A stretch of DNA of 64,000 nucleotides from Trypanosoma brucei. Lineage: Eukaryota. Made by a program: the position numbers and the translations under genes. The notes beneath the pieces are model-generated. The model saw only the letters and a list, made by a program, of their open reading frames with translations. It was not told the DNA's origin and ran no database searches. The stretch is from the NCBI GenBank assembly GCA_000002445.1, contig CM000208.1:3648001-3712000 (forward strand), read 5' to 3'. This document shows, one piece after another, positions 11,800 to 53,502 of this stretch; within the stretch, counting starts at the first letter, position 1; every line of letters begins with the position of its first letter.

Positions 11800-14700
11800 A
11801 TGGATTTTGACGAGTCAAGTGACGTCTCCAATGCCACAGCCGCTGACCACGAGTTCGAAGCGTCAGAAACCATAGTGGCAGCAGATGCGTTGGACCTTAT
11901 GCCGATTGAGCGTAACGGCACCGAGTCGTTAGTTTTTGAGACATTTCATGACAACAGTGTCACTGCGGAGGGAAGACCGATTTCATCAGCTGACCCAACC
12001 CTTTTAGAGGGTGAATATTTTCATCATCATCTGCTTGATGCAAAGGATGAGCCCATGCGTCCTGCCGCCCGCCGGGGAGGAAGCGGACACCATGGAGAGG
12101 GGCGTCTCGGTGTTCCAGTGGGTGATGGCGCTGAACATTCTATCAGATATGGAATTAGCGGTGAAAACAGGGACCCCCATCTGGAAGGCGGTTTCTCCGT
12201 TGAAGACGTGGAAATTTGGAATACGCTACTAACCCCCATGGCTCGGGTGGACATGACGCTGATGAGTTGCTTTTACGTTGGGCACCGCACTGTGTCTGAC
12301 TTGAATGGATCAGAAAGTACCACACATAACATGGAGGCAATGGTAAAAACTTTCTCGCCATTCTATTACAGATGCTCTACAAGCTCACTCGACGAAGGGG
12401 CGAGTAGTGAAGACAAAGGGAAATCCATGGCGTTGGTCACGCTGCAACGTCTTGCTTCGCACATGCAGTCCATGCAGCAAGCCCTTACAGAGAAAGGATT
12501 GATGAACAAACAATGTCAGGTAACTAGTAATGATATTATCGGTGCTGGTGGTGATGCCTCGGAAACATCTAGTCATGCAGATGAGCGGCCGCCTATTTGC
12601 CGTGGTGCGCATTCCATACACGTGGATTCCGCGTGCCGACTTATTGGTGTTATCGACGTGGACGTCTGTGCCGTCAGCTTGGCTGACGTCATTGCATTTC
12701 ATGCGCGGCCTCTGTCACAGAACGAGCTGGTTGCAGTGGTGAAGTCTGTTGTCACTAAAGTGGCTCTTCTACACAATGCCGGTGTCGTTCACGGTTGCCT
12801 TCACGCTGGCAACGTGCTCTGCGGCGCCGACAGGGGACACACATCTCTTGCTGGTCCCTGTGGGATTATGAGCAACCCGCTGTTTCCTGCGGATCCTTCC
12901 TTTATTTCCCCACGTCTCGCCGCTGCTATGCAGTCGCTGGTGGATTTGATATCGAAAGGTATCGAAGGGGGAAAGGTGGAAGGTGCCTTTTCATGGGTAG
13001 AGGATCCCTCCTTTCACACTGGTATTCTAGAATGCTTCGGATGCATTGACGGATCTAGCACCCAACCAAGCACTAACGATGATGTTTATGCTATCGGTAT
13101 ACTCACGTTGACATGTGCATTAGGTGTGCCCCCTTTTTGTACAGCCAAGTTACAAGAGGTGGTTCATATCTTGTCAAAATATTATGGCAGCGTTACTAGC
13201 AGCGGTGACGAAAAGGATGTCGTTTCACTACTGCTGGGAGGGGAGCTTTTTTCGTGTGACTACACCCTGCAGCGCATGCAACTCGCCGGTTATGAAAGCA
13301 ATTTTGTTAGTACCATGTTAGACTTTGTGGGTGTGTGTCTACGGGCGGGAGCATCTAAAGATGCCATACCGACTGTTGCTGCCGGAGACTTATTGCTGCA
13401 TTCGTTTTTCACAGATTATGGACCTGCAGCTTTCGTTAAAAGCAGCATGGAAGGTGCAGGGAGTGTAAGCAGTGATGAGGAAGCAGACTCAGCACATATT
13501 GGCAGGGTCCTTCATTGCTTGTTTTACCCTGTTTCCACAGCTTTAGATTGCATGAAAAGCGATTGCGGTACCACACCCTTCGTGCCACGGCTCTGTAGGA
13601 ATTCTATTTTTACAGCTCGTTTGAACGCTCTTCAAACTTCCCGATTGTGTGGTAGCAAAGGTCCCACTTCGGTGGCTACTGACAATGGCACCGCTGTGAG
13701 CTGGCCTTATTTGGACGTGAAAGCGCCCCACTGGCATACTACTGTTAGAAATTGTACTGCAGAATGGCGCTGTGAATTGTATGCAACACCGTCAACATTG
13801 CGTCACGCATCTTGCAGTGACAATAGTGGTTGCTTCGCTTCGTTGAAGAAAGTTGCTAAAACCAAAGGTATGAAGGTGGACGCTGAAGCTCGGACCCTTG
13901 TTTGGGAAAATAGGACCGGTAGTCGCTTGATTCTTCACAGGAACGACGTACAAAGTGGGTACCTGACTGCTACAGACACACTCATTCTTCGCAACCTTCA
14001 AGATTGTGTGGTGGAGGTGCTGCTTCGTTTTCGCTATGTTGTGCTACAAAATGTGGAGCGGTGTGAACTTCTAATGGGGCCATGTTATTTTTGTTATTGT
14101 GACACGGTGGTTGACTGCCCCCTCGTTGCCGTTGCGAGTGCGCACCTTGTGACTCACGACATTCTCCGTGTGAACCTTCGCCTTGGATTTTGCTCGCCAC
14201 CCAGCTGTCGTAACAGTAGGTCGGTGTGGGAGGAAGTACAGCTTGCCCCGTACAGCATTGCGTACGAAGGCCTCAGTGCAGATTACGCTGCTGTTCCACT
14301 CCCACAAGAGCATATCGCAACCGTTATGCTGGGGATTGAGCTCGAGTCTCCTGAGCTCGTTAAGGGAACCCTTGAATTGTGTAACACTCTGGGAAGGGGC
14401 CAGGACTACCCTTACTCCCATGCGCTTGCTGCTTTTGGTAACCGCTTCGTTCATGAGGATGACGGTGTCAGTGATGTTTTCTTGTACCCCACGGAAGTAA
14501 GGAATAAAGATATCCGGATTGCCCGAGTTCGTGGTGGTAGCTCCTCCGCCATGAATGATCACGAACGACTCTTCGCGTCAGATGTGACACGGCTTCCCCT
14601 ATGGCGATGGCGCCGGGATGACACGGATAAAGTTATACGCCGCATCGCTACCGAGGATTCAACTTTCGGACCAACGGATAGCAATGCGGGAGAAAGATTC

Positions 14701-16836
14701 CCGATCATATTCATATTAGATATAGTTGGTGATTGTCTTGTCGAGGACTGCTCGAACTGCGCTGTGATTATTATTGGTTCTACCGAAGCTATCACGTTTC
14801 GGCGCTGTGCCGACATGCGACTATTTGTGATGGGAAGGGAAGTGCTACTGGAGGAATGTGAATCGATGGAGGTCTACGTGTTTGCAACGGAGATGCTCGT
14901 GCTGACCAACTGCAGGGATATAACCTTCTTTCCCCTCGCAGTGCGGGCCCCTTGCATCGAGGATATCCTTGGATCAATTGTGGAAAGCACTGTGGATGAG
15001 ACTTTACGGGAAGAATTTTTCGTTGCATTCCAACAGAAAGACGTCATCACACTAAATGCGATCACGCGCCATGAAAGCGACGCGGGGGCAATTGACTTGC
15101 AGGCGTGTAATAACGTACAATTCGATGCGGCGTGCCCGCTGATGTTCACAGTAAATTTCGTTCCCAGTGACACGGAACCCTCCACATTGTTCTTCGAGGC
15201 TTGGCAGGAAATGCGCGATGAGTCGGAGTGGGTGGTGATACCTCTCATTGAACACGCCCGTGGGACAGCAAGTACCGAAGGTAGGGGAAGCGACAACGCT
15301 TTGCCACCGGTTCGTTTTCACGATCTAGTGAACGTTTCTATTCCACGCCCATCTGAAACTTTAAGTGGTCGGGAGCATTCGATTGGTGCCTCGTCGCAGC
15401 CGATGCTCGTTGAGGTGGTATTTGAACGCATTGCAATGGGTATTATACATGTTGATGACGTGGTGGAGACGCTATTTATTCGTAAGTGCACAGGACCTCT
15501 TGAAATTGTCGTTTGCGCGGCCACGAGGGTTATTATGGAATCGTGCGAACACGTGACAGTGCACACAGCTTGCTGCTCTTTTATAGCTGTTGATTGCCAT
15601 GCATGCCGCATAGCTCTGCATGTAAACACAAAGCCTCAGTATGTTAACTGCACAGACATACAGGCTTCGACCGCAAGTCTTACATCTCACGATTACGAGG
15701 TGTTTCTGGGGCGGGCAGGTGTGGTACCGGGCGCCAATAACTTCCATGAACCGGTGGTACATGGAGGGGATGCTTCTGAAATTAGCCTTCTCACTCCCGA
15801 TGCTGTGTCGAAGATTGCATTGGTGGACTCGCTTGAAAAGGCTTTCGCGGTTCTACACAGCTCCATCACACTCGTTCCACCACCGCCGTCTGTAAGTCTT
15901 GGGCAACAAGATGCTCCCTTGATGCCTGACATGGAGAGACGTGCCCGGCATGAGGAGACCGCACGGAAACCTTTTGATGCGAACATCGTTGATGCACTAA
16001 TATTTCTCTCTGACCGCCAGTCGGCGGAGTGTGTCGACCATACCCTTGAGCCCTCTGGGACGGTGGAAGTTGAAGGTGTGGAAGAGGAACAGCCTCTTCG
16101 AAATCGTCCAACACCATCTTCAGGGCACCCACACGTCGATGATTCATTGATGGTGAGGCACGTAGATCCACTCGCTGTGGATGGGACCTCTGGTGTGAAA
16201 GGGTCTCTGCTTAATGGTGAAGAAGTAAATCCGGCCTCCGCGGTGGCTGAGGAGGATGATGACTTCTCATCACACGAAGGAGAGCTGGCCAACACTAACG
16301 ATTGTAAAGATGAAGTTCACAACCAGAGTTATACCCAAAGCTTTGATTCCACAGATGAAGGCAGGAGCGACGAGAGCAGTTTCGCCGAGCAGCCACGTGA
16401 AGACGTGGCGACAGCATCGGAAGGGGACGAGACGGCAGCTGCTGCCCCACGGGGCGGCACCGACGCAATGAATTCCACGACTGAAAGTGCCAGCAGTGGC
16501 CATAAAACGGAAAAGGAAGTTGCGGAGACTCGAGAAACTGTGGTGTCTTTCGTTTCAGCCACAGAGGAAGACGTTATGTTTGAGGGGATTGGGGTTGAGC
16601 GCACGTCAAGAGCCTCCGTGGCATCAGGTGAAAGTGTGTACGAATCTGGGGGGCCAGTGAAAGAATTCAACGTCGTTGTTCACCCCGATGAAATGGAACT
16701 TGTGTCTGCAGCAATCAGAAACGCAGCCAAGGCCCGTGCCGACGCTCAAGCGGCCGGAGCTTCATCCGCCACGCTAATGGAGGGGTTGCACCGTCATGTG
16801 GAAGACACGGTTAGTTGGCTTCGTCGTTTGCGTTAG
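11800..16836 (+). CDS. Large hypothetical protein (1,678 aa) with a degenerate protein-kinase-like (pseudokinase) segment near the N-terminus
   Basis: 5-kb uninterrupted ORF. The segment ...LVAVVKSVVTKVALLHNAGVVHGCLHAGNVLCGAD... resembles the catalytic loop (HRDLKPxNIL) with D replaced by C/H. The segment ...DDVYAIGILTLTCALGVPPF... resembles kinase subdomain IX (DVWSLGVILYELLTGxxPF). No glycine-loop or DFG motif is present. Confidence 0.7.
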   Translation: MDFDESSDVSNATAADHEFEASETIVAADALDLMPIERNGTESLVFETFHDNSVTAEGRPISSADPTLLEGEYFHHHLLDAKDEPMRPAARRGGSGHHGEGRLGVPVGDGAEHSIRYGISGENRDPHLEGGFSVEDVEIWNTLLTPMARVDMTLMSCFYVGHRTVSDLNGSESTTHNMEAMVKTFSPFYYRCSTSSLDEGASSEDKGKSMALVTLQRLASHMQSMQQALTEKGLMNKQCQVTSNDIIGAGGDASETSSHADERPPICRGAHSIHVDSACRLIGVIDVDVCAVSLADVIAFHARPLSQNELVAVVKSVVTKVALLHNAGVVHGCLHAGNVLCGADRGHTSLAGPCGIMSNPLFPADPSFISPRLAAAMQSLVDLISKGIEGGKVEGAFSWVEDPSFHTGILECFGCIDGSSTQPSTNDDVYAIGILTLTCALGVPPFCTAKLQEVVHILSKYYGSVTSSGDEKDVVSLLLGGELFSCDYTLQRMQLAGYESNFVSTMLDFVGVCLRAGASKDAIPTVAAGDLLLHSFFTDYGPAAFVKSSMEGAGSVSSDEEADSAHIGRVLHCLFYPVSTALDCMKSDCGTTPFVPRLCRNSIFTARLNALQTSRLCGSKGPTSVATDNGTAVSWPYLDVKAPHWHTTVRNCTAEWRCELYATPSTLRHASCSDNSGCFASLKKVAKTKGMKVDAEARTLVWENRTGSRLILHRNDVQSGYLTATDTLILRNLQDCVVEVLLRFRYVVLQNVERCELLMGPCYFCYCDTVVDCPLVAVASAHLVTHDILRVNLRLGFCSPPSCRNSRSVWEEVQLAPYSIAYEGLSADYAAVPLPQEHIATVMLGIELESPELVKGTLELCNTLGRGQDYPYSHALAAFGNRFVHEDDGVSDVFLYPTEVRNKDIRIARVRGGSSSAMNDHERLFASDVTRLPLWRWRRDDTDKVIRRIATEDSTFGPTDSNAGERFPIIFILDIVGDCLVEDCSNCAVIIIGSTEAITFRRCADMRLFVMGREVLLEECESMEVYVFATEMLVLTNCRDITFFPLAVRAPCIEDILGSIVESTVDETLREEFFVAFQQKDVITLNAITRHESDAGAIDLQACNNVQFDAACPLMFTVNFVPSDTEPSTLFFEAWQEMRDESEWVVIPLIEHARGTASTEGRGSDNALPPVRFHDLVNVSIPRPSETLSGREHSIGASSQPMLVEVVFERIAMGIIHVDDVVETLFIRKCTGPLEIVVCAATRVIMESCEHVTVHTACCSFIAVDCHACRIALHVNTKPQYVNCTDIQASTASLTSHDYEVFLGRAGVVPGANNFHEPVVHGGDASEISLLTPDAVSKIALVDSLEKAFAVLHSSITLVPPPPSVSLGQQDAPLMPDMERRARHEETARKPFDANIVDALIFLSDRQSAECVDHTLEPSGTVEVEGVEEEQPLRNRPTPSSGHPHVDDSLMVRHVDPLAVDGTSGVKGSLLNGEEVNPASAVAEEDDDFSSHEGELANTNDCKDEVHNQSYTQSFDSTDEGRSDESSFAEQPREDVATASEGDETAAAAPRGGTDAMNSTTESASSGHKTEKEVAETRETVVSFVSATEEDVMFEGIGVERTSRASVASGESVYESGGPVKEFNVVVHPDEMELVSAAIRNAAKARADAQAAGASSATLMEGLHRHVEDTVSWLRRLR

Positions 16837-33993: not shown

Positions 33994-35811
33994 ATGACAC
34001 GCATGCGAGTGGACGCTAAGCTGCTCTTGAAAAGCGAAGATGACTTCCGACGCCTGTTGGAGCTGCTGCGGCCATTCCATTTACGCACGTGGAAGTATGA
34101 AGATTTTTACTTTGATACACCTAACTTCCTTTTGATGGCGAAGGACGTGCAGCTTCGGCTTCGTGTGCCTTTTAAGTCTTCCGACGGTAAAGATGAGAAG
34201 TTGGCAGGCGCTCAGGGCTCGAATATGCTTTGCCATGTTTCTCTCACTCTCAAGACTAACAGTTCGGTCGATGTCGGTGGACAAACTGCTGGCATTTTTG
34301 AAATGTTTCCGTTTACACCGAAAGATGTTGATGACATGCTGCAGGAAGATTCATTGGTTAGCGTGTTGAAGAATCGTAGCAGCGATGAACCTGCTAAGAC
34401 GGTTTTGGAATATCTAACAAGGGCTTCTGAGGAATATGGCGAGGAGTTGGTACTGACGCGCTTTGCCAGTTTTGAGACAACTCGAAGGCAATACAAGTTT
34501 GTGCCACATCTTGGCTTTGGTAGCGCACACAGTTCCGACAAAGATGTTGCATCGGAAAAGAATAAATCAGACCCACCACGCCTTTATGTGGATGAAGTAC
34601 CAATGGGTGATTTCAAATCTTATGAAGTAGAAGTGCAAGGTGTTACTGATCCACTCGCAGACGTCTGTCAAGATTTGATGGATTACCTGAACGAGAAAGG
34701 CATAGAATTTACCCACAGCTTATCTGGAAAGCTGAATCGCTTCATGACCCGCACCTTGGAGCTTGAAGAAATGAAGGAAGAATCCCAGTGTGTACGTCTC
34801 CGCATCAAGGGAAACAAGGGTTATGAAGAGGTATGTAGATGGCAAAACGAGGAGAATGAGATCAGTCTCGATCCGATTCCAAAGCGCGGGGCTCCACCTG
34901 TAGATAACGATAAGCCTACCTTTGGAGTGACGCAAATGGCATCTTCCTTGTTAGGGTTGGGACCACTTACTTCACAGGCTTCCCGAATGACACATTCGCA
35001 GAGCGTACGATTAAAGAGAATTCGAGAGGGCAATCATGGTGACGAAGAGTATTTTGAAAACTATTTTTTCGATGATCGCCCCAATGGAACCTTGGCAGCT
35101 AAAAAGTATACACTACGGTTGAGATGTTGCAACCCCCCTACCGCCTTCAGCCTCGAGCTTCGGAAAGAAAAATGGAGCGCTGGTGGTGTGAAGGGCTACG
35201 AGCGGAGACGCGCGTACATATCCGGTGATGTAGCTCGACTTATGCTCCGTGACCCTAATAAATTTTTGAATTCACTATCTTCTCAGAGTAGTCTTGGTCA
35301 TTTGCTACGACGGGACATGGGACTGCAGAAGCTAACCATCGTGGGTTACTGTAAAACGCATCGCATCACATATAATGGTAAGATTATCGAGAGAAGAATG
35401 GTGGAAGACTCCCAGAGAACCCGGGACGGTAACGCGGGAAAGGTGGCGGCACGACCACCCGGTGTGGAATTCACTCTTTTTCATGGACCGTCTAGCGCGG
35501 GATGTAGAGGTGAATTTTCCATCCAGTTAAACCGCATCATGGTTGATACCGGTAGTGATCCTGTGAAAGTCGCAAAAAGGGCATCAGAGGAACGTTGTTG
35601 CTCCATTTTTAACCCCCGTGGCTGCTCTCCCTTCCCGCGGGAACCATCAGAGACGGAATCGTATGAAGTGAAGTTGGCTGGACTTCCTGAAGGTTTGGCT
35701 GCTACAGCAGAGGACTGGCTGGTTTCTCAGCTTCACCAGCGCCAAGTGCAGTGGGAGGTAGTTATGTCTGCTGGCATGGGGCAGTATCATCCTTCCTTGG
35801 CTGCAGCGTAA
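33994..35811 (+). CDS. Tandem CYTH-domain (triphosphate tunnel metalloenzyme family) protein
   Basis: The N-terminal region WKYEDFYFDTPNFLLMAKDVQLRLRV matches the CYTH core, as in thiamine triphosphatase ([24 protein letters not shown]). A second copy EEYFENYFFDDRPNGTLAAKKYTLRLRC lies ~350 aa downstream. The canonical N-terminal ExExK is replaced by RVDAK. Confidence 0.65.
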   Translation: MTRMRVDAKLLLKSEDDFRRLLELLRPFHLRTWKYEDFYFDTPNFLLMAKDVQLRLRVPFKSSDGKDEKLAGAQGSNMLCHVSLTLKTNSSVDVGGQTAGIFEMFPFTPKDVDDMLQEDSLVSVLKNRSSDEPAKTVLEYLTRASEEYGEELVLTRFASFETTRRQYKFVPHLGFGSAHSSDKDVASEKNKSDPPRLYVDEVPMGDFKSYEVEVQGVTDPLADVCQDLMDYLNEKGIEFTHSLSGKLNRFMTRTLELEEMKEESQCVRLRIKGNKGYEEVCRWQNEENEISLDPIPKRGAPPVDNDKPTFGVTQMASSLLGLGPLTSQASRMTHSQSVRLKRIREGNHGDEEYFENYFFDDRPNGTLAAKKYTLRLRCCNPPTAFSLELRKEKWSAGGVKGYERRRAYISGDVARLMLRDPNKFLNSLSSQSSLGHLLRRDMGLQKLTIVGYCKTHRITYNGKIIERRMVEDSQRTRDGNAGKVAARPPGVEFTLFHGPSSAGCRGEFSIQLNRIMVDTGSDPVKVAKRASEERCCSIFNPRGCSPFPREPSETESYEVKLAGLPEGLAATAEDWLVSQLHQRQVQWEVVMSAGMGQYHPSLAAA

Positions 35812-38350: not shown

Positions 38351-38867
<517 letters not shown>

Positions 38868-44115: not shown

Positions 44116-46500
44116 ATGGCGCTCTCGCTTGTAGTTGGGTTAGCCAGCGATGCGCTGGAGGGCAGACATAACCATGAGAAACGTTTCGAGGCGTTGCGCG
44201 CACAACTCGGTGGAAGCTCCAGTTGGCGTCAGCAGCAATGTGTCGAAGGTGTTTGTGGTACATTTACTCTGGATGTCCCAATTACTGAAGCGGATGTGGA
44301 CCGGTGGGGAACTCTTCTCAGCGAAAGCGCCCCGCCGCCGGCTCCCCCGAATGCCGCTTTTGCTGGAGGTGGTTTTGTTGACGTTGCAGCATTGTTGGCG
44401 ATGGATAATGAGGGAGACCAGCAGCAGGCGGTGCATAAGCTCGCCCCAATGAAGATGTTTGATCCCAACCAGGTGATTAGACCGGCTATGACAAAAGTGC
44501 TTATGCACCGTCGCAAGTGGCTTCCGTACCGGCAGCGCTTGACCGTTTATCAGTGCCGTACCTCAATCATTGATGCGGTTCTCCGAAACTCAGTAGTGCT
44601 CCTTACCGCCCCACCGGGGAGCGGATGTACCCTACAGCTCCCGCAGATCATATGGGAAACAGAGGTGTTTAAGACAAAGCGCCTCATTATTGTTTGTCCC
44701 ACAACTCTCACGGTTCAACGGACCGTGCAACGGCTGCGAGAGGAACGTGGCGAAGAAGCAACGACGACGACAGTGGGTGAGTGCACTCCAATGTGCTATG
44801 GGGTAACCCCGGGTACGCAGATTGTCGTTACGACTCCGGAAATGTTTGTGCGACAGTTGCTATGTGACCCAATACTCCTTCATGTTGGTTGCGTTATATT
44901 TAATGACATTCACATACGTTCTCCAATAACGGAGTTTTCCCTCTCACTTCTTCGTAGCATGTTGCGGACGCGGGACGAGTGTGGCGTGGGACGACTTGGT
45001 AGTGCGCCGCGTGTTGTGGTTTGCTGTCCTGACGACGCGGTTTCTAATACCATTGCAGAGTACTTTGGAGCTGACCACAGTATGCAGCTGAACCTCCAAC
45101 AGGTGCTTCAACGGGATGTCAAGACGGGGGCAGCCGATGCACTGCGAAGCAGCGGCTCGTACGCATCACCGGTTGTACTCTACCTTGAAGAAACTATGCA
45201 GTGGCTCACAAAGTGCGAGGAGGAGGGAAGCTTTTTGTGTCGTGACCCTGGAGAGGAACTCCGGTGCTATGTGGAAAACATTGGAGTTGTTGCAAAAATA
45301 ATGGCCATGGAAAATGCGGATTTCATGTCAGATGAAAAATTTCGCTCCCACTGGTGCCCTCTCATAGTAAACGCAATTCAGCAACATAGTTTAGCGGAGC
45401 GTAAGGAGCGTGCGACCTTGCTAGCGGAAAATAAGGAAGGGAAGCATCAAGAACTTCGGCAGGGTCACACGGTAGTGGTTGTTGTCGCACCCAACCCTCA
45501 AGTAGTGGCAACTATTGCCCATGCATTGCGCCAGGTGAATGACCAACAGAGGGAGGGGAAAGAAATGGCTCCTTCCATTACTGTTGAAGTATTGCGGGAA
45601 TGCACCACCTCTGATGAATTGCGTCTTCTTTTACGAGAAGGCGGTACGGCAGTGGAGGGCGGTGATCGTTTAGTGTTAGTGGCCACTCCTATTGTGGCAC
45701 AAACTGCGCTTCCACCGTCACTGTCAGTGGGCCTCGTGATTGACTGTGCCCGCCGCTCTTGTGCCACATATAACCCAAATGTTGACACTGATGTATTTTC
45801 CACTTCGTATAGTTACATACAGGAATTGCGGCAACGACGTTCAATTGCCCGTGTGTGTGTGGATAATTCAGGCAAGAAGGAGGAGGAGAGTGGCGTCCCA
45901 GCCCCCATGGTACTGCAGCTAATACCGAAATCTATCCTACACAGCGCCCAACACCGACGTGTGAGCTCTGATCCTGCACACCATTCCATTTTCCACTTAC
46001 CTTGGGTGGATTATGTGCATATATATCACCTGCTGCAAGCCCATGAAGAGGCCTTGTGTTGCCGTGGTCCGTCATCAGCATCCGCCATAGGCAGTTCTCA
46101 CACTGGAAATCTATTGTCACGGAATGTACCCCAACTCGTGTCATCTGCCTTTATCGGTGTTGCTTCACTATCCGCTAGCCGTTATGAGCATCTTAAACGT
46201 ATCTTCATTGCTGTAGAAAATCATTTGGTTCGCCTAGGACACTTGCAGAGACCAAGTGAGGAGCAGTTTGTACCTCGACTTCTGCCACTGGGCGTGGTCA
46301 CGACGTGCTTCGCCCTCCCTATTCCGGTGCTTCGGCTGTTGGTGTGGTCGCGATTGTATGGATGTGTTGTTCCCGCGAGCGTCGTAGCGGCGATTTGGAT
46401 GCTGGGTGATATTTTTTGCACTGTTCAGCACGATGATGAAGCTGCTGAACTTATGCGAGAGTCACGTGTATTTTTTCACATGGCTCCGGGAGCGATGTAG
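44116..46500 (+). CDS. DEAH/RHA-family helicase-like protein with degenerate catalytic motifs (probable pseudohelicase)
   Basis: Collinear matches to DEAH-box motifs, each with catalytic residues replaced. Motif I is APPGSGCTLQLPQ (GETGSGKTTQxPQ, K->C). Motif Ia is CPTTLTVQRTVQRL (CTQPRRVAAmSVAkRV). Motif Ib is TPEMFVRQ (TDGMLLRE). Motif II is DPILLHVGCVIFNDIHIRSP (DPLLskYSvIilDEAHERtl). Motif III is CCPDDAVSNTIAEYF (MSATLDAEKFSeYF). The stop at 46498-46500 directly abuts the next ORF. Confidence 0.75.
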   Translation: MALSLVVGLASDALEGRHNHEKRFEALRAQLGGSSSWRQQQCVEGVCGTFTLDVPITEADVDRWGTLLSESAPPPAPPNAAFAGGGFVDVAALLAMDNEGDQQQAVHKLAPMKMFDPNQVIRPAMTKVLMHRRKWLPYRQRLTVYQCRTSIIDAVLRNSVVLLTAPPGSGCTLQLPQIIWETEVFKTKRLIIVCPTTLTVQRTVQRLREERGEEATTTTVGECTPMCYGVTPGTQIVVTTPEMFVRQLLCDPILLHVGCVIFNDIHIRSPITEFSLSLLRSMLRTRDECGVGRLGSAPRVVVCCPDDAVSNTIAEYFGADHSMQLNLQQVLQRDVKTGAADALRSSGSYASPVVLYLEETMQWLTKCEEEGSFLCRDPGEELRCYVENIGVVAKIMAMENADFMSDEKFRSHWCPLIVNAIQQHSLAERKERATLLAENKEGKHQELRQGHTVVVVVAPNPQVVATIAHALRQVNDQQREGKEMAPSITVEVLRECTTSDELRLLLREGGTAVEGGDRLVLVATPIVAQTALPPSLSVGLVIDCARRSCATYNPNVDTDVFSTSYSYIQELRQRRSIARVCVDNSGKKEEESGVPAPMVLQLIPKSILHSAQHRRVSSDPAHHSIFHLPWVDYVHIYHLLQAHEEALCCRGPSSASAIGSSHTGNLLSRNVPQLVSSAFIGVASLSASRYEHLKRIFIAVENHLVRLGHLQRPSEEQFVPRLLPLGVVTTCFALPIPVLRLLVWSRLYGCVVPASVVAAIWMLGDIFCTVQHDDEAAELMRESRVFFHMAPGAM

Positions 46501-49424
46501 TGAGTGCGTTTCATGCTTATCGTATGTGGCTTTCCCTACGTGGTACCGCGGGGGAGTCCGGGGATGCCTTCGGGAGTGAGAGTTTTGTTTCGAGTGAAAC
46601 ACTAATCAAGGTGGAAAAGCAACAACTGATGTTATTACATGTGCTTGAGGTAACTGGGGTCATTGCACCTCTCGTATCCCAAGAAATTCGCTTAACTGAG
46701 AGTGGCAAGAGTTCCCCCGCTTCAGTAGGGAAATCACAGGGCGACATTTTCGATACTTTAGCTTCCACTATTCTTGCGATGCCAGAGGCGGCGTTGCTGG
46801 AGGGCAATGGTCTACTTCAGTGCGTAACTGCAGCGCTCTATCCTCAGTATGCCACACCTCTCGATGATGGATCTGCTTTGGCGTTGCGTTTTGTGGAAGG
46901 CGCCGCAAAACCTTCAACCAATGATGGAAACGATGGGTCTGAAGGGGATGCTCAACATGCGGTACCACAACTTGCATTCTTCTCCGAGCTATCCGTGATG
47001 AGCGTGGAGGAGGTATACAAGAGCCACGCGGGAAAGCCGTTTCTATATCTTCATCGTGATGGTGAGCCTGAGGGGAGGATCGCATTGTTGAAAGGAGCTA
47101 CACCCCTATGCATGGACGCGGCGGTTGTTTCATGCGGTGAGCGGTCGGACCATCCGAAGCAACAGGCATCACGGTGCCGGGGGTGGACGTCTGTTATAAC
47201 AAACGCGTGGCGGTTAACGAAATGTGCGCGACGGCTCCCACCCGCAGCGCAGTTACCGCCCGTATCCATACCGTTTAAGTTGTATGACACCATTCAAGCC
47301 CCTCAGGTTATCGTCCAGCTTGACGGAGTGATGTCGCTGTCCATGAGGGCCACAACTGCCAAATGGTTACACCAACTTCGGGAGCATACAAGTTGTAGAC
47401 TACGCGCTCTCGTTGCAGATAAAACATGGCCTGCAGTCCAACAAGAACTCTCCGGTCTTCATGAGGCATGGGAATGGTGGTCAAGACGTGTAGCCAACTC
47501 GCAGGCATGGCTACGAGAGGAGCGGGCTTCCCGTCCTGCCTCTAATGCGAGTTCGGCAGGACATTTAGCTCAGGATAATGATTTAAGAGAGTTATTGTGT
47601 CCATACTATCAGTATAGCTCGAATCCAGGTCGACCTCCAATGGTCGTTCCTCCTAAAAGGCGGCAGGGTGCTGGCGCACCCCTGAATGCATCTTGTTCGA
47701 CCACCGCCGTAGCAGGGACAGATCAACCAACAGCATACAATGGGAAAATGCCCGATCCCGTCATGAGCAATAACATTCAACATTCAGCGAAGAGTATTGC
47801 CAAGGCTCGAAGTCGTGAACAGGAAGCCAAATTCCTGAAGATGTACCCTGACTTGTTTGCCTTCCTCGACCCGGAACATGAGTTCCATGGTTATTACTTA
47901 CATGTGCTACGTCGCGAAGCCCCCGACCTGGAGGTTCTTGGTGATAACTTAGAGGAGCTTGAGAAATTCCTTCAGGATCTTGAAGAGGAGGTTAGGGAAG
48001 AGGTTGGTGCACAGAGTGCTATGGCAACATACGATGGGCGGAACGGTGACCAGTCGTGTTTTGCTGGTGATTATCAAGCGGAGGCTCCCAGAACAGATGC
48101 CTCTTACCAGTTCCAGGAGGTGAATGCTGACGAGTACATGGCCTCCTACGGAATGCAAGTGGAGAGTTCGGTGGAACATGCAACACGTCCACCGGCGTTG
48201 TTCAGAACACAAGATGTGACTCAACCATCTTCTTCCTCTTTGGATAAAGCGGAGAGTGTCCCGGCCGCAGCCTCTTTTTTTACGCAAGGTCCAGCAGTGG
48301 AGAACTCCACATGTGGTATTTTAGGTGATGGCTTCGTGGAGGAGCCTGTAGCGGGCTTGGCCCCACCTGTCGATAACGGTCCGTCATCCGAGAACTTCGC
48401 GTTTACGTCAGGACAGACAACATCGTCGACTTCGATGGCGGGAGCCAAAACAGAAGCAACGGCGTACGGGTTTACCGGGGTCGGTGCGTCAGGCGACGGT
48501 GCTGTTGGGCGTGCACCAACTTTGATGGAGCAGCTGTTGGCGATGAAGGCTGGCGGTGCCTTGGGCCCGGTGCAGCCTGCAGTTTCTGTTCCTCAGGACG
48601 CGATTCCCCAAGACATGGCACCTTCTGCGTCTGCCCAAATCCCTGGTTCTTGGCTTGGAGGTACCGTTGCACCGCCTGTCATCAACTCAGGTTTTGAACT
48701 GCCTTCTTCTTCTGCCATGACCGCCACGTCTTCTTCTCAGACGGCTGCCGCGAACGCTTCCCTCACGAGGGACCTTCTCGAGGTTATGGGAGTCATTCCA
48801 CCTCCACCCCCAGTTAATCCGCTAACAATTGCCCCACCGCCACTTCCTGCGGAAGCCCTTGCAAACCGTCCCCCTTCCGTGTTGGTGTATCCTCTGCCAC
48901 CGCGCGAATACGGAAACATTCCGCTTATTCTTGCCAAGGCAATGGGTGAAACAATGGGAATTAAAGTAGGACCAACACGTCTCGTGGGAAATGTTGGTCG
49001 TATCGATGTTCCGAACCACAAAGTAGAGGCGCGTGCATTGGCACTTAAGTCCTTCACATGCGTGGGCAAAAAGGTGTACATCTTCAAGAATGACCGCATT
49101 GTGGATGGGCCGCGGAATGCAGTGGTTAATAATGCTCCCATTCAACAGCGCAACTCCCGCTTAAATGCCCCACGAGATCTAGTTGGTGAGGGAAATATGT
49201 ATGAACAACCTGATGGTGCCGAGAATGAGGGCTTCGCGCAGTCGCTGAGGAAACTTGTTGAAGACGGCCGGCCCCCACCGATGGCTCATGTACCGGAGAA
49301 TCATTTTGCGGCGAACGCAAGGGCCTCAGCAAAGAAGTCAATCAATCCACAACTAATTGGAGTGTTGTTGGATTCAGATGACGACGGAGATGAGGAATCG
49401 TCAGAAAGATCTGCATCAGTGTAG
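46500..49424 (+). CDS. SURP-module-containing proline-rich protein; probably the C-terminal continuation of the 44116-46500 gene across a frameshift
   Basis: This frame is open from 46449. The ORF tracker starts at a GTG at 46500, and the first ATG is at 46524. A SURP/SWAP module is present: NIQHSAKSIAKARSREQEAKFLKMYPDLFAFLDPEHEFHGYYLHVLRRE (consensus I..TA.FVA..G..FE......NpkFsFL.p.dpyHaYY.hKl). Pro-rich segments follow (PPPPPVNPLTIAPPPLP). Leaving 0-24 nt to the upstream stop codon is incompatible with separate trans-spliced genes. Confidence 0.6.
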   Translation: MSAFHAYRMWLSLRGTAGESGDAFGSESFVSSETLIKVEKQQLMLLHVLEVTGVIAPLVSQEIRLTESGKSSPASVGKSQGDIFDTLASTILAMPEAALLEGNGLLQCVTAALYPQYATPLDDGSALALRFVEGAAKPSTNDGNDGSEGDAQHAVPQLAFFSELSVMSVEEVYKSHAGKPFLYLHRDGEPEGRIALLKGATPLCMDAAVVSCGERSDHPKQQASRCRGWTSVITNAWRLTKCARRLPPAAQLPPVSIPFKLYDTIQAPQVIVQLDGVMSLSMRATTAKWLHQLREHTSCRLRALVADKTWPAVQQELSGLHEAWEWWSRRVANSQAWLREERASRPASNASSAGHLAQDNDLRELLCPYYQYSSNPGRPPMVVPPKRRQGAGAPLNASCSTTAVAGTDQPTAYNGKMPDPVMSNNIQHSAKSIAKARSREQEAKFLKMYPDLFAFLDPEHEFHGYYLHVLRREAPDLEVLGDNLEELEKFLQDLEEEVREEVGAQSAMATYDGRNGDQSCFAGDYQAEAPRTDASYQFQEVNADEYMASYGMQVESSVEHATRPPALFRTQDVTQPSSSSLDKAESVPAAASFFTQGPAVENSTCGILGDGFVEEPVAGLAPPVDNGPSSENFAFTSGQTTSSTSMAGAKTEATAYGFTGVGASGDGAVGRAPTLMEQLLAMKAGGALGPVQPAVSVPQDAIPQDMAPSASAQIPGSWLGGTVAPPVINSGFELPSSSAMTATSSSQTAAANASLTRDLLEVMGVIPPPPPVNPLTIAPPPLPAEALANRPPSVLVYPLPPREYGNIPLILAKAMGETMGIKVGPTRLVGNVGRIDVPNHKVEARALALKSFTCVGKKVYIFKNDRIVDGPRNAVVNNAPIQQRNSRLNAPRDLVGEGNMYEQPDGAENEGFAQSLRKLVEDGRPPPMAHVPENHFAANARASAKKSINPQLIGVLLDSDDDGDEESSERSASV

Positions 49425-50329
49425 GAGTCGCCGTGAAGGGGATGGACTAAATTGCGAAAGTGGAGGTGGAATAGCAGATGTGATCAACGCACCCAATGCG
49501 GGTTGCAAAAAAAAAAAAAAGAAAAAAAACTGGAAAGCGAGGTGCCCAAAAAAAAATAATGTGAAGCATACCGTTTTAAACACAGGTAATCTATGCTGAC
49601 CTGATACTTGTTCTTGTTGCTAAAAATCGTTCATTCCGTATATCGGTGATACAGTTTAGGTTTCTGCTACCGAGCAGGCATTCTCTGGGGGTGCAAGTTG
49701 TTTTCATTATTGGCGAACACTCTCGACAACTTTTGTAACTGAGCTGAACCTGCTCATTACCGCCCGGAGGGGGGGGCGGTGGGTGTATGATATCAAGAGG
49801 AAGAGGCAACAACAAAAATTTTTTTATGTTGAGGTTGAAGTCGAAGTGAACATGGAGGAGGCTTTCTTTCCTTTGGAAAGACCTCGTGGATGGATGAGAC
49901 ACCTTAAGTTACCTTGTTTGTTTTTGATGCTGTGCATTTCCGTGTTTTCATTTGTGCATATAAGATGTTGCATCCGCTTAAAAAAAACAACAACAACAAA
50001 AACATCACCTGTGTGACTGCGTCGAGTGTGAGGAAGAGGGACTGACACGTAGGCTGCCTTTGTTGTTTCCTGTTTTCCTCCTCTTTTTCTGTTTACTTTG
50101 TTGTCTCAATGCAACTTCCTGCTGTGTTTGGCACCTCTTCTTTACTTTCCCCGAGAAGCTAATGAACCTAACTTGTGTAGGAAACGCGCGCTCAACACCG
50201 ATGGCAACGTTCATAACAATAATAACAACACTTGTATTAAGGCTACGAGCTGCGGTAGAAGGATAGTTACGGAATTCCATATAATTATTATTGTCATTGT
50301 TATCACTGATTTGTGGAGCTCTATCGGGT

Positions 50330-50440
50330 GTTCTTTCTACCTGATGCTTCAACCCTAACCCCTGCGTTTCCTTCAATTTTCTGTCTTTATACTTTCTGAT
50401 GTCTCTATTTTTATTTTTATTTTTAAATGGCGTTGACTCA
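50330..50440 (+). promoter_or_regulatory. Pyrimidine-rich region upstream of RNA polymerase subunit gene
   Basis: ctttctacctgatgcttcaaccctaacccctgcgtttccttcaattttctgtctttatactttctgatgtctctatttttatttttattttt is on the coding strand ~280 nt 5' of the ATG. Confidence 0.35.
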
Positions 50441-50717
50441 TACAGCATTAATCTTTGTCGTCGCCTAACGTAATACAGTAAGTTTCCAAGTAGGTGAGGC
50501 TTCGTTTTCGTCGCCTAGTCGCACTTTAAAGAAACAAAGGATCACACCCAGAGGGGAGGGGGAGGAAGAGAAGGAAGCTCAGAAAGCCTTAAACAGGTCG
50601 AACACAGAAAGCAGAAAAGTTACGACGACGTAATTGACCCCTAGGGTGCGACAAACCAGTTTGCCGCGCGTTTTTCCATTGTTTCTACCGCGTGAAGGCG
50701 TGATCCTGCTTTAGGTT

Positions 50718-51743
50718 TTGCCTGTAGATATGGTCAAAGTGTACAATTTGCAACGTAGGACGGAAACCTTACCGACGGTGCGTCGCACTGCTCCTAATGC
50801 GGAGGAATTGGAATATCAGAGTCACTTGTCGCGCCCCGCTGGTGCCGGTGACGGTGAGCCAACTCGTCGAGTTGAGACCATCACATTTGACATGGATAAC
50901 GTAAGTCCGCCTGTGGCCAACATGTTCCGCCGGCTTATGCTTACTGAGGTGCCAGTTTTCGCTTTCGACCGAATATTGATCGAACATAATGACGGTGTTG
51001 TCCCGGATGAGCTTCTTGCGCACCGCATTGGCCTTGTTCCACTTGCTGGACCCGTTTCAAGCATGCAGTACATAACCGATAGTGCCTCCGTTGGATTTGA
51101 CAACCTTGACCCGGAGCGCGTTTTGCTATTCGAGTTGGATGTGACCGCAAAACGTGACGTGCCGACGACCAGTGTATACAGTGGCCATCTCAAGTGGCAG
51201 CCCATTGCTAAACAGGAGGAACTGGCTGCGAGGAGCGAGGATGATCGCGTGTTTTTAGTGCATCCAGACATTGTTCTGACACGGCTGGGGCCTGGGCAGC
51301 GCTTAAAGTTGCGTGCCATTGCCATTAAAGGAATTGGTGCTGTGCACGCAAAGTGGACGCCTGTGGCCGCTTGTTTCTATGAAATGAAACAAGCCAAAGC
51401 GGGAGCGGAAGACTCTGACGGTAGAGCTTCTGGTCGCGGAAGGAGTCGTTCGGGAAGAGGTCGAGTAGACGCCAACGAGGAGGAGAGCAATGCAACACGT
51501 CCCCGCTCAGCATCCGGTAATCATTCTCACGAACCGCACAGAGAAACTGTTAACGAAGTTATTGCTAAAAGGGACACATCCTCCGTACGCTTTACCGTTG
51601 AAAGTATCGGACAGTTGTATGCCGTCGATGTGTTTCGGCAGGCTCTTATATTGTTTGCCGAACGAATTCGCGATTTGGCGGTTCGAATCCGCTCTACAGA
51701 ACCGAGAATGACTGGCGCAGCAGCCACTGCGTTTACGGAATAG
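50718..51743 (+). CDS. DNA-directed RNA polymerase alpha-like subunit (RPAC1/AC40-like; RPB3/RpoA family) with an RG-rich insertion
   Basis: N-terminal domain FDMDNVSPPVANMFRRLMLTEVPVFAFDRILIEHNDGVVPDELLAHRIGLVPL matches the RPB3/AC40 dimerisation domain (ANalRRilisEVPt.Aid.V.i..NTSv..DEflAHRLGLiPl). There is no CxCxxCxxC zinc loop, which favours AC40 over RPB3. The C-terminal helix (VDVFRQALILFAERIRDL) is typical of alpha-like subunits. The insertion reads GRASGRGRSRSGRGRVD. Confidence 0.65.
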   Translation: MPVDMVKVYNLQRRTETLPTVRRTAPNAEELEYQSHLSRPAGAGDGEPTRRVETITFDMDNVSPPVANMFRRLMLTEVPVFAFDRILIEHNDGVVPDELLAHRIGLVPLAGPVSSMQYITDSASVGFDNLDPERVLLFELDVTAKRDVPTTSVYSGHLKWQPIAKQEELAARSEDDRVFLVHPDIVLTRLGPGQRLKLRAIAIKGIGAVHAKWTPVAACFYEMKQAKAGAEDSDGRASGRGRSRSGRGRVDANEEESNATRPRSASGNHSHEPHRETVNEVIAKRDTSSVRFTVESIGQLYAVDVFRQALILFAERIRDLAVRIRSTEPRMTGAAATAFTE

Positions 51744-52200
51744 TAAATGATGTGGATGAGCAACGCCTTTAGTTGGAGAACGAACCGAGAGAGGCACAAA
51801 GCAAGGTTCCTGTGGAACCTCTGCTTTCCTTGGATGGATAAATGATGCTGGGGGATTAACGTGACGTATATGTTTGGGAGGCAAATAAATGCGAAGGGAG
51901 TTGGTGGCACTACACGTTTGTAAGCCGTAGAGGCTTCTCTTCCCCGTTTCTCGCCTGCACTCTCCCTTGGTATTTGGAGGAAGTTGCGTGGCGAAAAAAT
52001 TTGGTGTGTGTGTGTGTGTGTGTCCTTGTTCGTAATAAAGCATAATTAAAAGTTTATTTCGACGTAAATTGTTAAACGAAAACTGTATGATAGTCTTTGA
52101 ACTTGCCAGGACGAGAGCAGCTACGTATGTGCCATCGTCGAGAGGTTGCAGTATGAGATGTACTCTTAATTCAATCACATAGCTCTCAAAATATTGTTCA

Positions 52201-52370
52201 TTCTATTATTACTATTTTTTTTTTCTTTTGGGTTTCCACATTGTTGGACTCCTTGCACATATACTATCGGTCCCGTGTCACCGCTATTGTTGCGTGTGTA
52301 CGTCTCATCTGCTACCCATTTTTCGGCCAGTCCCCCTGGTCTTTAACGCACCGCTAGTGGCGGAAGGAAC
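52201..52370 (+). promoter_or_regulatory. Extended pyrimidine-rich region upstream of UTP11
   Basis: ttctattattactattttttttttcttttgggtttccacattgttggactccttg... continues pyrimidine-rich to ~52370, 90-260 nt 5' of the ATG at 52462. Confidence 0.35.
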
Positions 52371-52461
52371 CGAGGCGATATTCTGCAGTAAACTGGCCAG
52401 CCTAGGACAAGGCTCAAGAGAACAAGTAAAAGTTCAGGAAATTCATTAGGTTACGAAAGCA

Positions 52462-53502
52462 ATGACAAAGGGCAAGGGCCGTAATCCCGGTATGGGAAAT
52501 CTGGACAAGCACGTCAAACGCAAGGTGCACAAGGAACGATCGCAACCTGCAGCTCGGAAGCACCTTGGCCCACTTGAGAAACACAAGGATCATGTGGTGC
52601 GCTCGCGTAGGCGAAAGGCGAAGGTGCAGCGGCTACTTGAGCTGAAGCGGGCTGCGGCGCAACGTAATCCTGACGAGTTCCACATTAATATGACCAAAAC
52701 TGTTTTGGATGTCGAATCGGGTAAAATGAGGCGTCGACGCCTGTCAAAGGAAGATAACCGTAAGAAGATGGAGAAGACTTTGCGGCACAACACTCGCAAC
52801 TTGCATTACCTCAAGTATAAAGCGCATGCAGACTGGAGCCGCGCAAAGGAGCTGATTGAAGAGGATGCATTGGGGGCACTTACGGCAGCACCGCCTAAGA
52901 ATAAACACATAATCTTTGCAGAAGACGAAGACGAGTACCATCACTTCAATCCTCTCAAGCAACTTGACGCGACACCGGAGATGCTCAAGCAGCATCCCGC
53001 CGTGCGCGGGAGACTCTCAGTTCTACGTGAAACTGTGTTACCTGAAGAAATACTCTTGTCGGGATATCGAATGCTGTCGACAGCGCAGAAGCGGAAGGAA
53101 CGTCGTGAGATACAGAGGAAATTACAAAAAAGTGGTCTCAAAAGTGAAGAAGAACGAGCGGAGTTCGTGAAGCGACTCCATGCAAAGAAAGAGGTGAAAA
53201 TGCACCGGTTTTCTTCCCTTGTAGCAAACGCACTTGAATCTACAGACGCTGAGGCTGAGGGCGAAGATGCTGATGATCCCTGCGACGTGGATCGCCTCCT
53301 CGAGTACAAAAAGATTAAAGAGAAGGAGGAAGCCCTATTAGCAGCAAGCCGCGTTAAGGAGATTCAGCAACGCGTGCACCGCAGTAAAAAGCTTGATACC
53401 CTGGCAAGGGCGATTAAGAAGCAGAACGATGGTATTCGGTGCTCGTTAGAAAATAAGCGCAACGCCCGGTTTAAGCCAAATTCTAAGCGACGCGCTCGTT
53501 AA
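52462..53502 (+). CDS. UTP11: U3 snoRNP / SSU-processome protein UTP11
   Basis: The N-terminus HKERSQPAARKHLGPLEKHKDHVVRSRRRKAKVQRLLELKRAAAQRNPDEFHINM matches the UTP11 family signature (hrERaQP..R..lGlLEKkKDY..RA.d...K...lk.L...A..rNPDEFyf.M). A basic/coiled C-terminal half is typical of UTP11. Confidence 0.8.
   Translation: MTKGKGRNPGMGNLDKHVKRKVHKERSQPAARKHLGPLEKHKDHVVRSRRRKAKVQRLLELKRAAAQRNPDEFHINMTKTVLDVESGKMRRRRLSKEDNRKKMEKTLRHNTRNLHYLKYKAHADWSRAKELIEEDALGALTAAPPKNKHIIFAEDEDEYHHFNPLKQLDATPEMLKQHPAVRGRLSVLRETVLPEEILLSGYRMLSTAQKRKERREIQRKLQKSGLKSEEERAEFVKRLHAKKEVKMHRFSSLVANALESTDAEAEGEDADDPCDVDRLLEYKKIKEKEEALLAASRVKEIQQRVHRSKKLDTLARAIKKQNDGIRCSLENKRNARFKPNSKRRAR

Follow-up and report, generated by a model that had tools for sequence, protein, structure and literature searches.

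The helicases of the DHX29/DHX36/DHX57/DHX9 group carry, in this order, the modules RecA1, RecA2, winged helix (WH), ratchet and OB. In enzymes of superfamily 2 (SF2), hydrolysis needs the Walker A lysine, the Walker B glutamate and the arginine fingers of motif VI, and changes of K to A or R in Walker A and of E to Q or D in Walker B abolish it. DEAH helicases also enter a partnership with SURP/G-patch proteins, in which it is the G-patch that binds and activates the helicase; the SURP modules, for their part, have helical peptides of SF1 and SF3a60 as ligands, not helicases. SF2 folds without catalytic motifs can serve as platforms in nuclear ribonucleoprotein (RNP) machines, as do the C-terminal cassette of Brr2 (Ski2-like) and Utp25 (DEAD-like; PMC9539457). 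Here we describe Tb927.10.15360, a gene of Trypanosoma brucei that lies in a stretch of 64,000 nucleotides (assembly GCA_000002445.1, contig CM000208.1, positions 3,648,001 to 3,712,000 of the forward strand), which we call the window and whose first letter is position 1. We consider it likely that its product, which carries a SURP module and an RRM-like domain in the same chain, derives from a DEAH/RHA helicase but has lost catalysis, and that it works as an ATP-independent scaffold in nuclear RNPs, much as the Brr2 cassette and Utp25 do from within other SF2 families than this DEAH/RHA-type protein. Few pseudoenzymes are built on helicase folds, and in the literature searched we found neither a DEAH/RHA-derived example nor a DEAH/RHA-derived pseudohelicase fused to a SURP module.

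The original prediction had read a DEAH-like fold from the collinear order of motifs I, Ia, Ib, II and III, all of which lie in the open reading frame (ORF) at 44116-46500 (+), and had asked for profile searches as a check. The similarity proved significant. The Pfam DEAD profile matched the window protein with E=1.2e-6 (28.8 bits against a cut-off of 26), and phmmer against the PDB aligned amino acids (aa) 133-289 with DHX29, Prp2, Prp16, Prp22 and Prp43 at E-values of 1e-11 to 1e-5; all 60 matches listed, at E-values from 1e-11 to 2e-3, were DEAH/RHA helicases. A profile of 17 orthologs likewise returned DEAH/RHA helicases in all 60 PDB matches listed, with Drosophila DHX36 as the best (E=4.6e-27) and DHX29 (E=3e-23) among them, and it matched RecA1 and the WH/ratchet region as separate stretches. 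When the family was compared with a canonical DEAH protein (P0020) by hhalign, the probability was 99.2% over 578 columns that ran from RecA1 into the ratchet domain and reached query column 746. Every motif fell in register in a MAFFT alignment with four canonical DEAH proteins, which ruled out misalignment as the source of the substitutions described below. The topology of an AlphaFold2 (AF2) model of aa 101-1200 ran from RecA1 and RecA2 through a helical WH/ratchet part to a beta module, and the top 50 Foldseek matches of this model in the PDB were all DEAH/RHA cores, with E-values from 8e-24 (DHX29) to 6e-20 over about 760-1050 columns. The core fold is that of a DEAH/RHA helicase, and the DHX29/DHX36/DHX57/DHX9 group gave the best matches both in sequence and in structure; by profile and by Foldseek the core is nearer to DHX29, DHX36 and DHX57 than to Prp43/DHX15.

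The modules beyond RecA1 were followed in the same way. The WH/ratchet stretch at 707-861 matched DHX29 1063-1207 and Drosophila DHX36 621-776 in the profile search, and the region was helical in the AF2 model with a predicted local distance difference test score (pLDDT) of 60-84. MLE and Spindle-E match this stretch as DHX36 and DHX29 do, whereas human DHX9 does not. For the OB-like module, beta strands were predicted at model residues 812-897 (block pLDDT about 31-76, with a peak of 70-76 at 850-880), and Foldseek aligned about 870-1000 columns with full DEAH/RHA cores. Pfam on single sequences gave only DEAD, AAA_19 and weak Surp matches. Unlike in the DHX29/DHX36/DHX57/DHX9 group, Helicase_C, HA2 and OB_NTP_bind were not detected in the window protein or in the 17 orthologs, which leaves the OB module without support at the level of sequence. 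The original prediction had asked whether helicase modules extend into the downstream ORF. The WH/ratchet region, supported by profile and by hhalign, spans the break between the two ORFs, and the OB module appears in an AF2 model of moderate confidence and in Foldseek but not as a Pfam HA2 or OB_NTP_bind match. As modeled, the protein appears to retain the five-module architecture of RecA1, RecA2, winged helix, ratchet and, probably, OB. The OB-like module is followed by a region whose conservation ranks with the highest in the family, with the motifs RCRGW..T..WR.T....LPP... and AWEWW.RR...WLREER; it had no match to any known fold, and its AF2 model was of low confidence.

While the fold is kept, the catalytic motifs are not. 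GSGCT for the P-loop, NDIH for DEAH and CPD for SAT, the substitutions on which the original prediction had rested its claim that every catalytic motif is degenerate, were read directly in the translation at the positions listed in Table 1, and the claim applies to motifs V and VI of RecA2 as well. In the T. brucei protein, motifs I, Ia, II, III, V and VI are all non-canonical, in contrast to those of the DHX29/DHX36/DHX57/DHX9 group. These losses take in the residues for NTP binding, for its hydrolysis and for the coupling of hydrolysis to translocation along RNA, among them the Walker A lysine and the Walker B Asp-Glu pair. In motif tables of 17 to 23 sequences, motifs Ia, III, V and VI depart from the canonical form in every family member. 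In the alignment of the family with the four canonical DEAH proteins, the QPRR of motif Ia (CPTT in T. brucei), the SAT of motif III, the TNIAETS of motif V (TPIVAQT) and the QRRGRAGR of motif VI (QRRSIARV), with both of its arginine fingers, are lost throughout the family. The T...LLR of motif Ib is kept across the family, and the histidine of motif II is mostly kept.

The Walker motifs differ among family members. The most divergent member, P0038, has a canonical Walker A, GETGVGKTTQ, and DEAQ at motif II, the latter found only there, and five others (P0029, P0032, P0034, P0035 and P0037) have GxGKS/T together with DD. GSGR(T/S) occurs in 15 of the 17 aligned orthologs, from trypanosomatid lineages, and in P0030; the members with this P-loop mostly have DDxH, and most Trypanosoma have NDxH. 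T. brucei combines GSGCT with NDIH; the Walker lysine is retained only in the more basal members. From this series the ATP site appears to have decayed stepwise across the family, the RecA2 motifs being lost first, Walker B next and Walker A last.

It could be argued that a P-loop with Cys or Arg and a DD or ND pair hydrolyzes in an unusual way, and that the protein is an active, non-canonical NTPase or helicase. Such an enzyme would fit with the conserved GSG.T backbone of the P-loop, the conserved Q of TLQ, motif Ib and the motif II histidine, with the Walker lysine of the basal members and with the D-E of P0038. However, no member, basal ones included, has the two arginine fingers of motif VI, the SAT motif or motif V, and in SF2 enzymes K-to-A or K-to-R changes in Walker A and E-to-Q or E-to-D changes in Walker B abolish hydrolysis. 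Moreover, the would-be catalytic positions vary among orthologs (K, R or C at the Walker A lysine, D or N at the first position of Walker B) beside neighbors that are invariant, indicating that the site is no longer selected for catalysis. We therefore regard an active enzyme as very unlikely and infer, from the motif loss and SF2 enzymology, that the T. brucei protein does not hydrolyze NTP.

In the window the gene appears as two ORFs, 44116-46500 (+, frame 1, 794 aa) and 46500-49424 (frame 3, 974 aa), which abut. The break was traced to a run of six T residues (T6), where L001, a close relative's Logan contig that is otherwise collinear with the window, has seven; this indel is the sole frame-breaking difference between the two over 5.3 kb. 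The T6 frameshift creates the stop at 46498-46500, with further stops in frame 1 directly after it, and three-frame translation showed that frame 3 resumes with ...SHGSGSDVVSAFHAYRMWLSLRG exactly where frame 1 ends. Insertion of one T into the run yields a single ORF of 1769 aa, in which the frame-corrected SDVVSAFHAYRMW aligns with the canonical SDHLxxxNAYxxW of the ratchet domain. An intact ORF of 1768-1769 aa was present in 7 of the 7 T. brucei-clade relatives looked up, namely T. b. gambiense, T. equiperdum, T. b. equiperdum and four Logan assemblies. The protein of T. b. gambiense DAL972 is CBH16772.1, annotated 'hypothetical protein, conserved', and that of T. equiperdum is SCU68362.1, annotated 'DEAD/DEAH box helicase, putative', from which the repaired window protein differs at 3 residues only. 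For an inactive protein the latter name would mislead. All kinetoplastid orthologs examined were single ORFs, of about 1440-2070 aa in other lineages. The two ORFs are one gene split by a one-base homopolymer deletion, which supports the fusion to the downstream SURP region that the original prediction had raised; the likeliest cause of the split is a mistake in the assembly or a lesion of very recent date. The original prediction had covered 44600-45040, about 8% of the 5.3-kb gene; the RecA2 motif loss, the frameshift and the full extent of the gene go beyond it.

A mechanical ORF list gives two ORFs, and these could be taken for separate genes, one for a truncated helicase-like protein (794 aa) and one for an independent SURP protein (974 aa) with a GTG or an internal ATG start. 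Yet the abutting ORFs leave no intergenic room for trans-splicing and polyadenylation signals, the break lies inside the ratchet domain, and the orthologs are all single chains. Exact look-ups in a collection of 15 billion sequences found neither ORF from any nearby Met (several Met starts of the second ORF were used), nor did they find the repaired 1769-aa protein. Two separate genes are hardly credible on this evidence.

The single gene could be identified from its neighbors. The order in the window is a histone H3 variant ORF (38448-38867), the pseudo-helicase gene, an RPB3/AC40-like ORF, Utp11 and a kinesin. In the supplement of a T. brucei nuclear proteome, the identifiers are Tb927.10.15350 for H3.V, Tb927.10.15370 for the alpha-like subunit of RNA polymerase and Tb927.10.15380 for UTP11 (PMC5519215). 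Because the pseudo-helicase gene falls between H3.V and the AC40-like and UTP11 genes, it is Tb927.10.15360, which the same supplement enters as 'hypothetical protein, conserved' (PMC5519215). No functional study of Tb927.10.15360 was found in the literature searched; a single paper names it in its main text, where an MKT1-TAP purification gives it as 'P-loop hydrolase?' at 3% coverage (PMC3985637).

A genuine frame break in the window, with frame 1 stopping straight after it, would also fit a decaying pseudogene, in which case the degenerate motifs would be part of the death of the gene. Several results speak against this. The motif degeneracy is common to all kinetoplastid orthologs and is thus long older than the frameshift, a lone homopolymer indel is a typical assembly error, and the gene is intact in the seven close relatives. 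Between the window and L001, the ratio of nonsynonymous to synonymous polymorphism (pN/pS) was 0.215; synonymous changes lie to either side of the frameshift and dominate downstream of it, and the gene is under purifying selection. The protein is also made: Tb927.10.15360 was detected with 47 peptides in nuclei of procyclic T. brucei, with a nuclear enrichment score of 2.31 (p=1.7e-5), well above the cut-off of 0.7 used in that proteome (PMC5519215). A decaying pseudogene is therefore very unlikely.

The C-terminal half of this single chain carries, as the original prediction had supposed, a true SURP module; it is closest to SURP1 of SF3A1. A family profile of the region (A5) found SF3A1 SURP1 as the best match in the PDB (E=1.7e-5), followed by the SURP of SFRS8 and by Prp21, and 6 of the 6 matches below E=0.03 were SURP proteins (four SF3A1 constructs, SFRS8 and Prp21). 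Pfam Surp matched 9 of the 17 orthologs at E<=1, with a best value of 2.2e-4, and in P0038 it scored 24.4 bits against a threshold of 21.1 over profile positions 2-52 of 53. In AF2 the region was modeled as helices (block pLDDT 62-83), for which Foldseek returned the SURP modules of SF3A1 and SFRS8 at E of about 0.04. The (F)xFL.P....H.YY signature of SF3A1 (SF3a120/Prp21) is kept in the family SURP as well; in contrast to SF3A1, the T. brucei protein has just one SURP, set among other domains. The trypanosome SF3a120 was considered as an identity for the protein and rejected: T. brucei SF3a120 is Tb927.3.1140, of 44 kDa (PMC3961280).

The linker after the SURP module is poorly conserved save for the short motif LMEQLLAMK and a proline stretch, PPPLPAEA (alignment A1). 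The linker also shows an in-frame length polymorphism of serine runs at 48714-48731 (aa 1534-1539 of the fused protein), which read SSSAMTATSSS in the window and SSSSAMTATSS in L001. The RRM-like domain beyond it matched RRMs in Foldseek at E of about 0.01, with a TM score (target) of up to 0.70 and a root-mean-square deviation of 2-3 A over about 80 residues for the best matches. Its beta-1 (VLVYPL) and beta-3 (VGRIDVPN) both lack the consensus aromatics of RNP1 and RNP2. A UHM-type, protein-binding role was also considered for the domain, which has K-x-F where UHMs have R-x-F. A family profile of the C-terminal domain (A6) gave no significant match in the PDB, its best one (E=0.47) not being an RRM, and no RRM family was among the Pfam matches in the 17 orthologs; in sequence the domain is an orphan.

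SURP and a DEAH-family core in one functional unit recall SUGP1 (SURP plus G-patch) with DHX15, and the protein had been proposed as a covalent version of this SURP/G-patch-plus-DEAH partnership. This analogy did not hold in detail: a Pfam search of the 17 orthologs down to E<=1 gave no G-patch family, the core is of the DHX29/DHX36/DHX57 type and the ATPase appears to be lost, so that the helicase part would not be activatable as DHX15 is. The protein also differs from the DEAH/RHA helicases retrieved in its N-terminus, and the C-terminal half with SURP and RRM-like domains is found in none of those.

What such a protein does can be proposed from its domain content. It is probably an ATP-independent nuclear RNP scaffold, in which the helicase-shaped core would be a static platform that binds RNA or protein and the SURP module would dock on a short helix of a partner, by analogy with the SF3A1 SURPs on SF1 and SF3a60. 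SURP modules are not known outside splicing-related nuclear proteins, and the nuclear location of Tb927.10.15360 agrees with this. The scaffold is possibly linked to splicing, and its likeliest setting would be pre-mRNA (trans-)splicing or processing. More specifically, it may be an ancient kinetoplastid pseudo-DEAH/RHA scaffold that acts as an ATP-independent RNA clamp docked on SF1- or SF3a-type factors and so forms a lineage-specific structural part of the machinery of trans-splicing or of 3'-splice-site recognition, a proposal that we make only tentatively and with some doubt.

Several points weigh against the scaffold proposal or parts of it. Tb927.10.15360 was not reported among the partners of SF3a60 (PMC3961280), we found nothing that ties it directly to the spliceosome, and its sole interaction record found is that with MKT1-TAP, at 3%, with 0% for ZC3H11-TAP in the same table (PMC3985637). 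Judging from the motifs, nucleotide could be bound without being hydrolyzed, especially by the basal GxGKT members. The AF2 core model was of low quality (mean pLDDT 55, predicted TM score 0.48), so that neither the OB module nor the state of the RNA tunnel is certain. The window's own match to Pfam Surp (PF01805) was below the threshold, with 13.1 bits (E=0.1) against 21.1, and the RRM-like assignment comes entirely from predicted structure.

The family spans a natural gradient of ATP sites, near-canonical at one end and fully degenerate at the other, and is thus a useful system for asking what job a DEAH/RHA scaffold does without ATP. Trypanosomatids trans-splice every mRNA, and a conserved SURP-bearing nuclear protein in them is a candidate, open to test, for an RNA-processing factor that is specific to the lineage and still missing.

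A profile of the core was also run against 1.84 billion representative proteins. It returned 21 family-level representatives with E-values of 0 to 1.5e-54, whose matches mostly cover the family-specific regions; below them was a sharp drop to generic DEAH helicases that matched in RecA1 only (E of about 1e-36). The nearest non-family proteins had a UBA_DHX29 plus RWD plus DEAH architecture. All named family members were kinetoplastids, and no family-level relative outside kinetoplastids turned up among these representatives. The metagenome contig of the divergent member P0038 (L002, 8001-14775) shares with window positions 44116-53502 the order pseudo-helicase, RPB3/AC40-like, Utp11, and this synteny supports the orthology of P0038 and speaks for a functional gene. 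One ortholog model from EukProt (P0018) carries a C-terminal TBCC domain, probably through a gene-model fusion with a neighboring gene.

Table 1. Features of the pseudo-helicase gene in the window (positions of the 64,000-nucleotide stretch; aa numbers of the frame-corrected protein).
Feature	Position	Strand	Evidence
Whole gene, 1769-aa pseudo-DEAH/RHA + SURP + RRM-like protein	44116..49424	+	Tb927.10.15360 via gene order
N-terminal region, aa 1-130, with family-specific conserved LDVP..DV.RW motif	44116..44505	+	alignment A1; AF2 pLDDT <50
RecA1-like domain, aa ~131-310, degenerate motifs	44506..45045	+	Pfam, phmmer, profile, hhalign, MAFFT, translation
Motif I, GSGCT (canonical GxGKT/S)	44617-44631	+	direct translation
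Motif Ia, IVCPTTLTVQ (canonical TQPRRvAA)	44689-44718	+	direct translation
Motif Ib, VTTPEMFVRQLL, T...LxR kept (canonical TxGxLLR)	44827-44862	+	direct translation
Motif II, NDIH (canonical DExH)	44902-44913	+	direct translation
Motif III, CPD (canonical SAT)	45025-45033	+	direct translation
RecA2-like domain with insertion, aa ~345-600	45148..45915	+	hhalign, MAFFT, AF2 alpha/beta topology
Motif V, LVATPIVAQTALP replacing TNIAETSxT	45676-45714	+	hhalign, MAFFT
Motif VI, IQELRQRRSIARV replacing QRxGRAGR, both arginine fingers lost	45817-45855	+	hhalign, MAFFT
Winged-helix and ratchet (helical-bundle) modules, aa ~605-910, frameshift inside	45928..46844	+	profile vs PDB, hhalign, AF2
T6 homopolymer, one-base deletion, frame shifted	46471..46476	+	DNA comparison with L001 (T7), three-frame translation
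Predicted OB-like beta module, aa ~912-1000	46848..47114	+	AF2 strands, Foldseek alignments
Family-specific highly conserved region after OB module, ~135 aa	47142..47549	+	invariant columns in alignments A1/A4; AF2 pLDDT <50
SURP module, aa 1213-1268, then conserved helix LGDNLEELEKFLQDLE	47751..47918	+	family profile, Pfam, AF2, Foldseek
Low-complexity linker, aa ~1269-1587, predicted disordered	47919..48875	+	pLDDT <50, alignment A1
RRM-like domain (beta-alpha-beta-beta-alpha-beta), aa 1588-1658	48876..49088	+	AF2 pLDDT 90-93, Foldseek
Conserved NDRI(I/V)D motif, then variable tail ending DSDDDGDEESS (acidic/Ser-rich) and stop codon	49089..49424	+	alignment A1, translation

The window as a whole is like a trypanosomatid chromosome, with long ORFs on the same strand and AT-rich spacers between them, and Rfam and tRNA scans of it were empty. 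The stretch at 22000-44000 has a GC content of 0.29-0.49, only two longer ORFs and many simple repeats of the (TA)n type, and its spacers are unusually long for a trypanosome polycistron. The 139-aa histone H3 variant ORF at 38448-38867 (+), H3.V-like and Tb927.10.15350 by gene order, stands alone in this low-GC stretch of about 22 kb. In a 605-aa ORF at 33994-35811 (+), a CYTH (triphosphate tunnel) domain at the N-terminus is the only domain recognized, and in a 1678-aa ORF at 11800-16836 (+) a TBCC (tubulin cofactor C) domain is accompanied by a weak kinase-like match.

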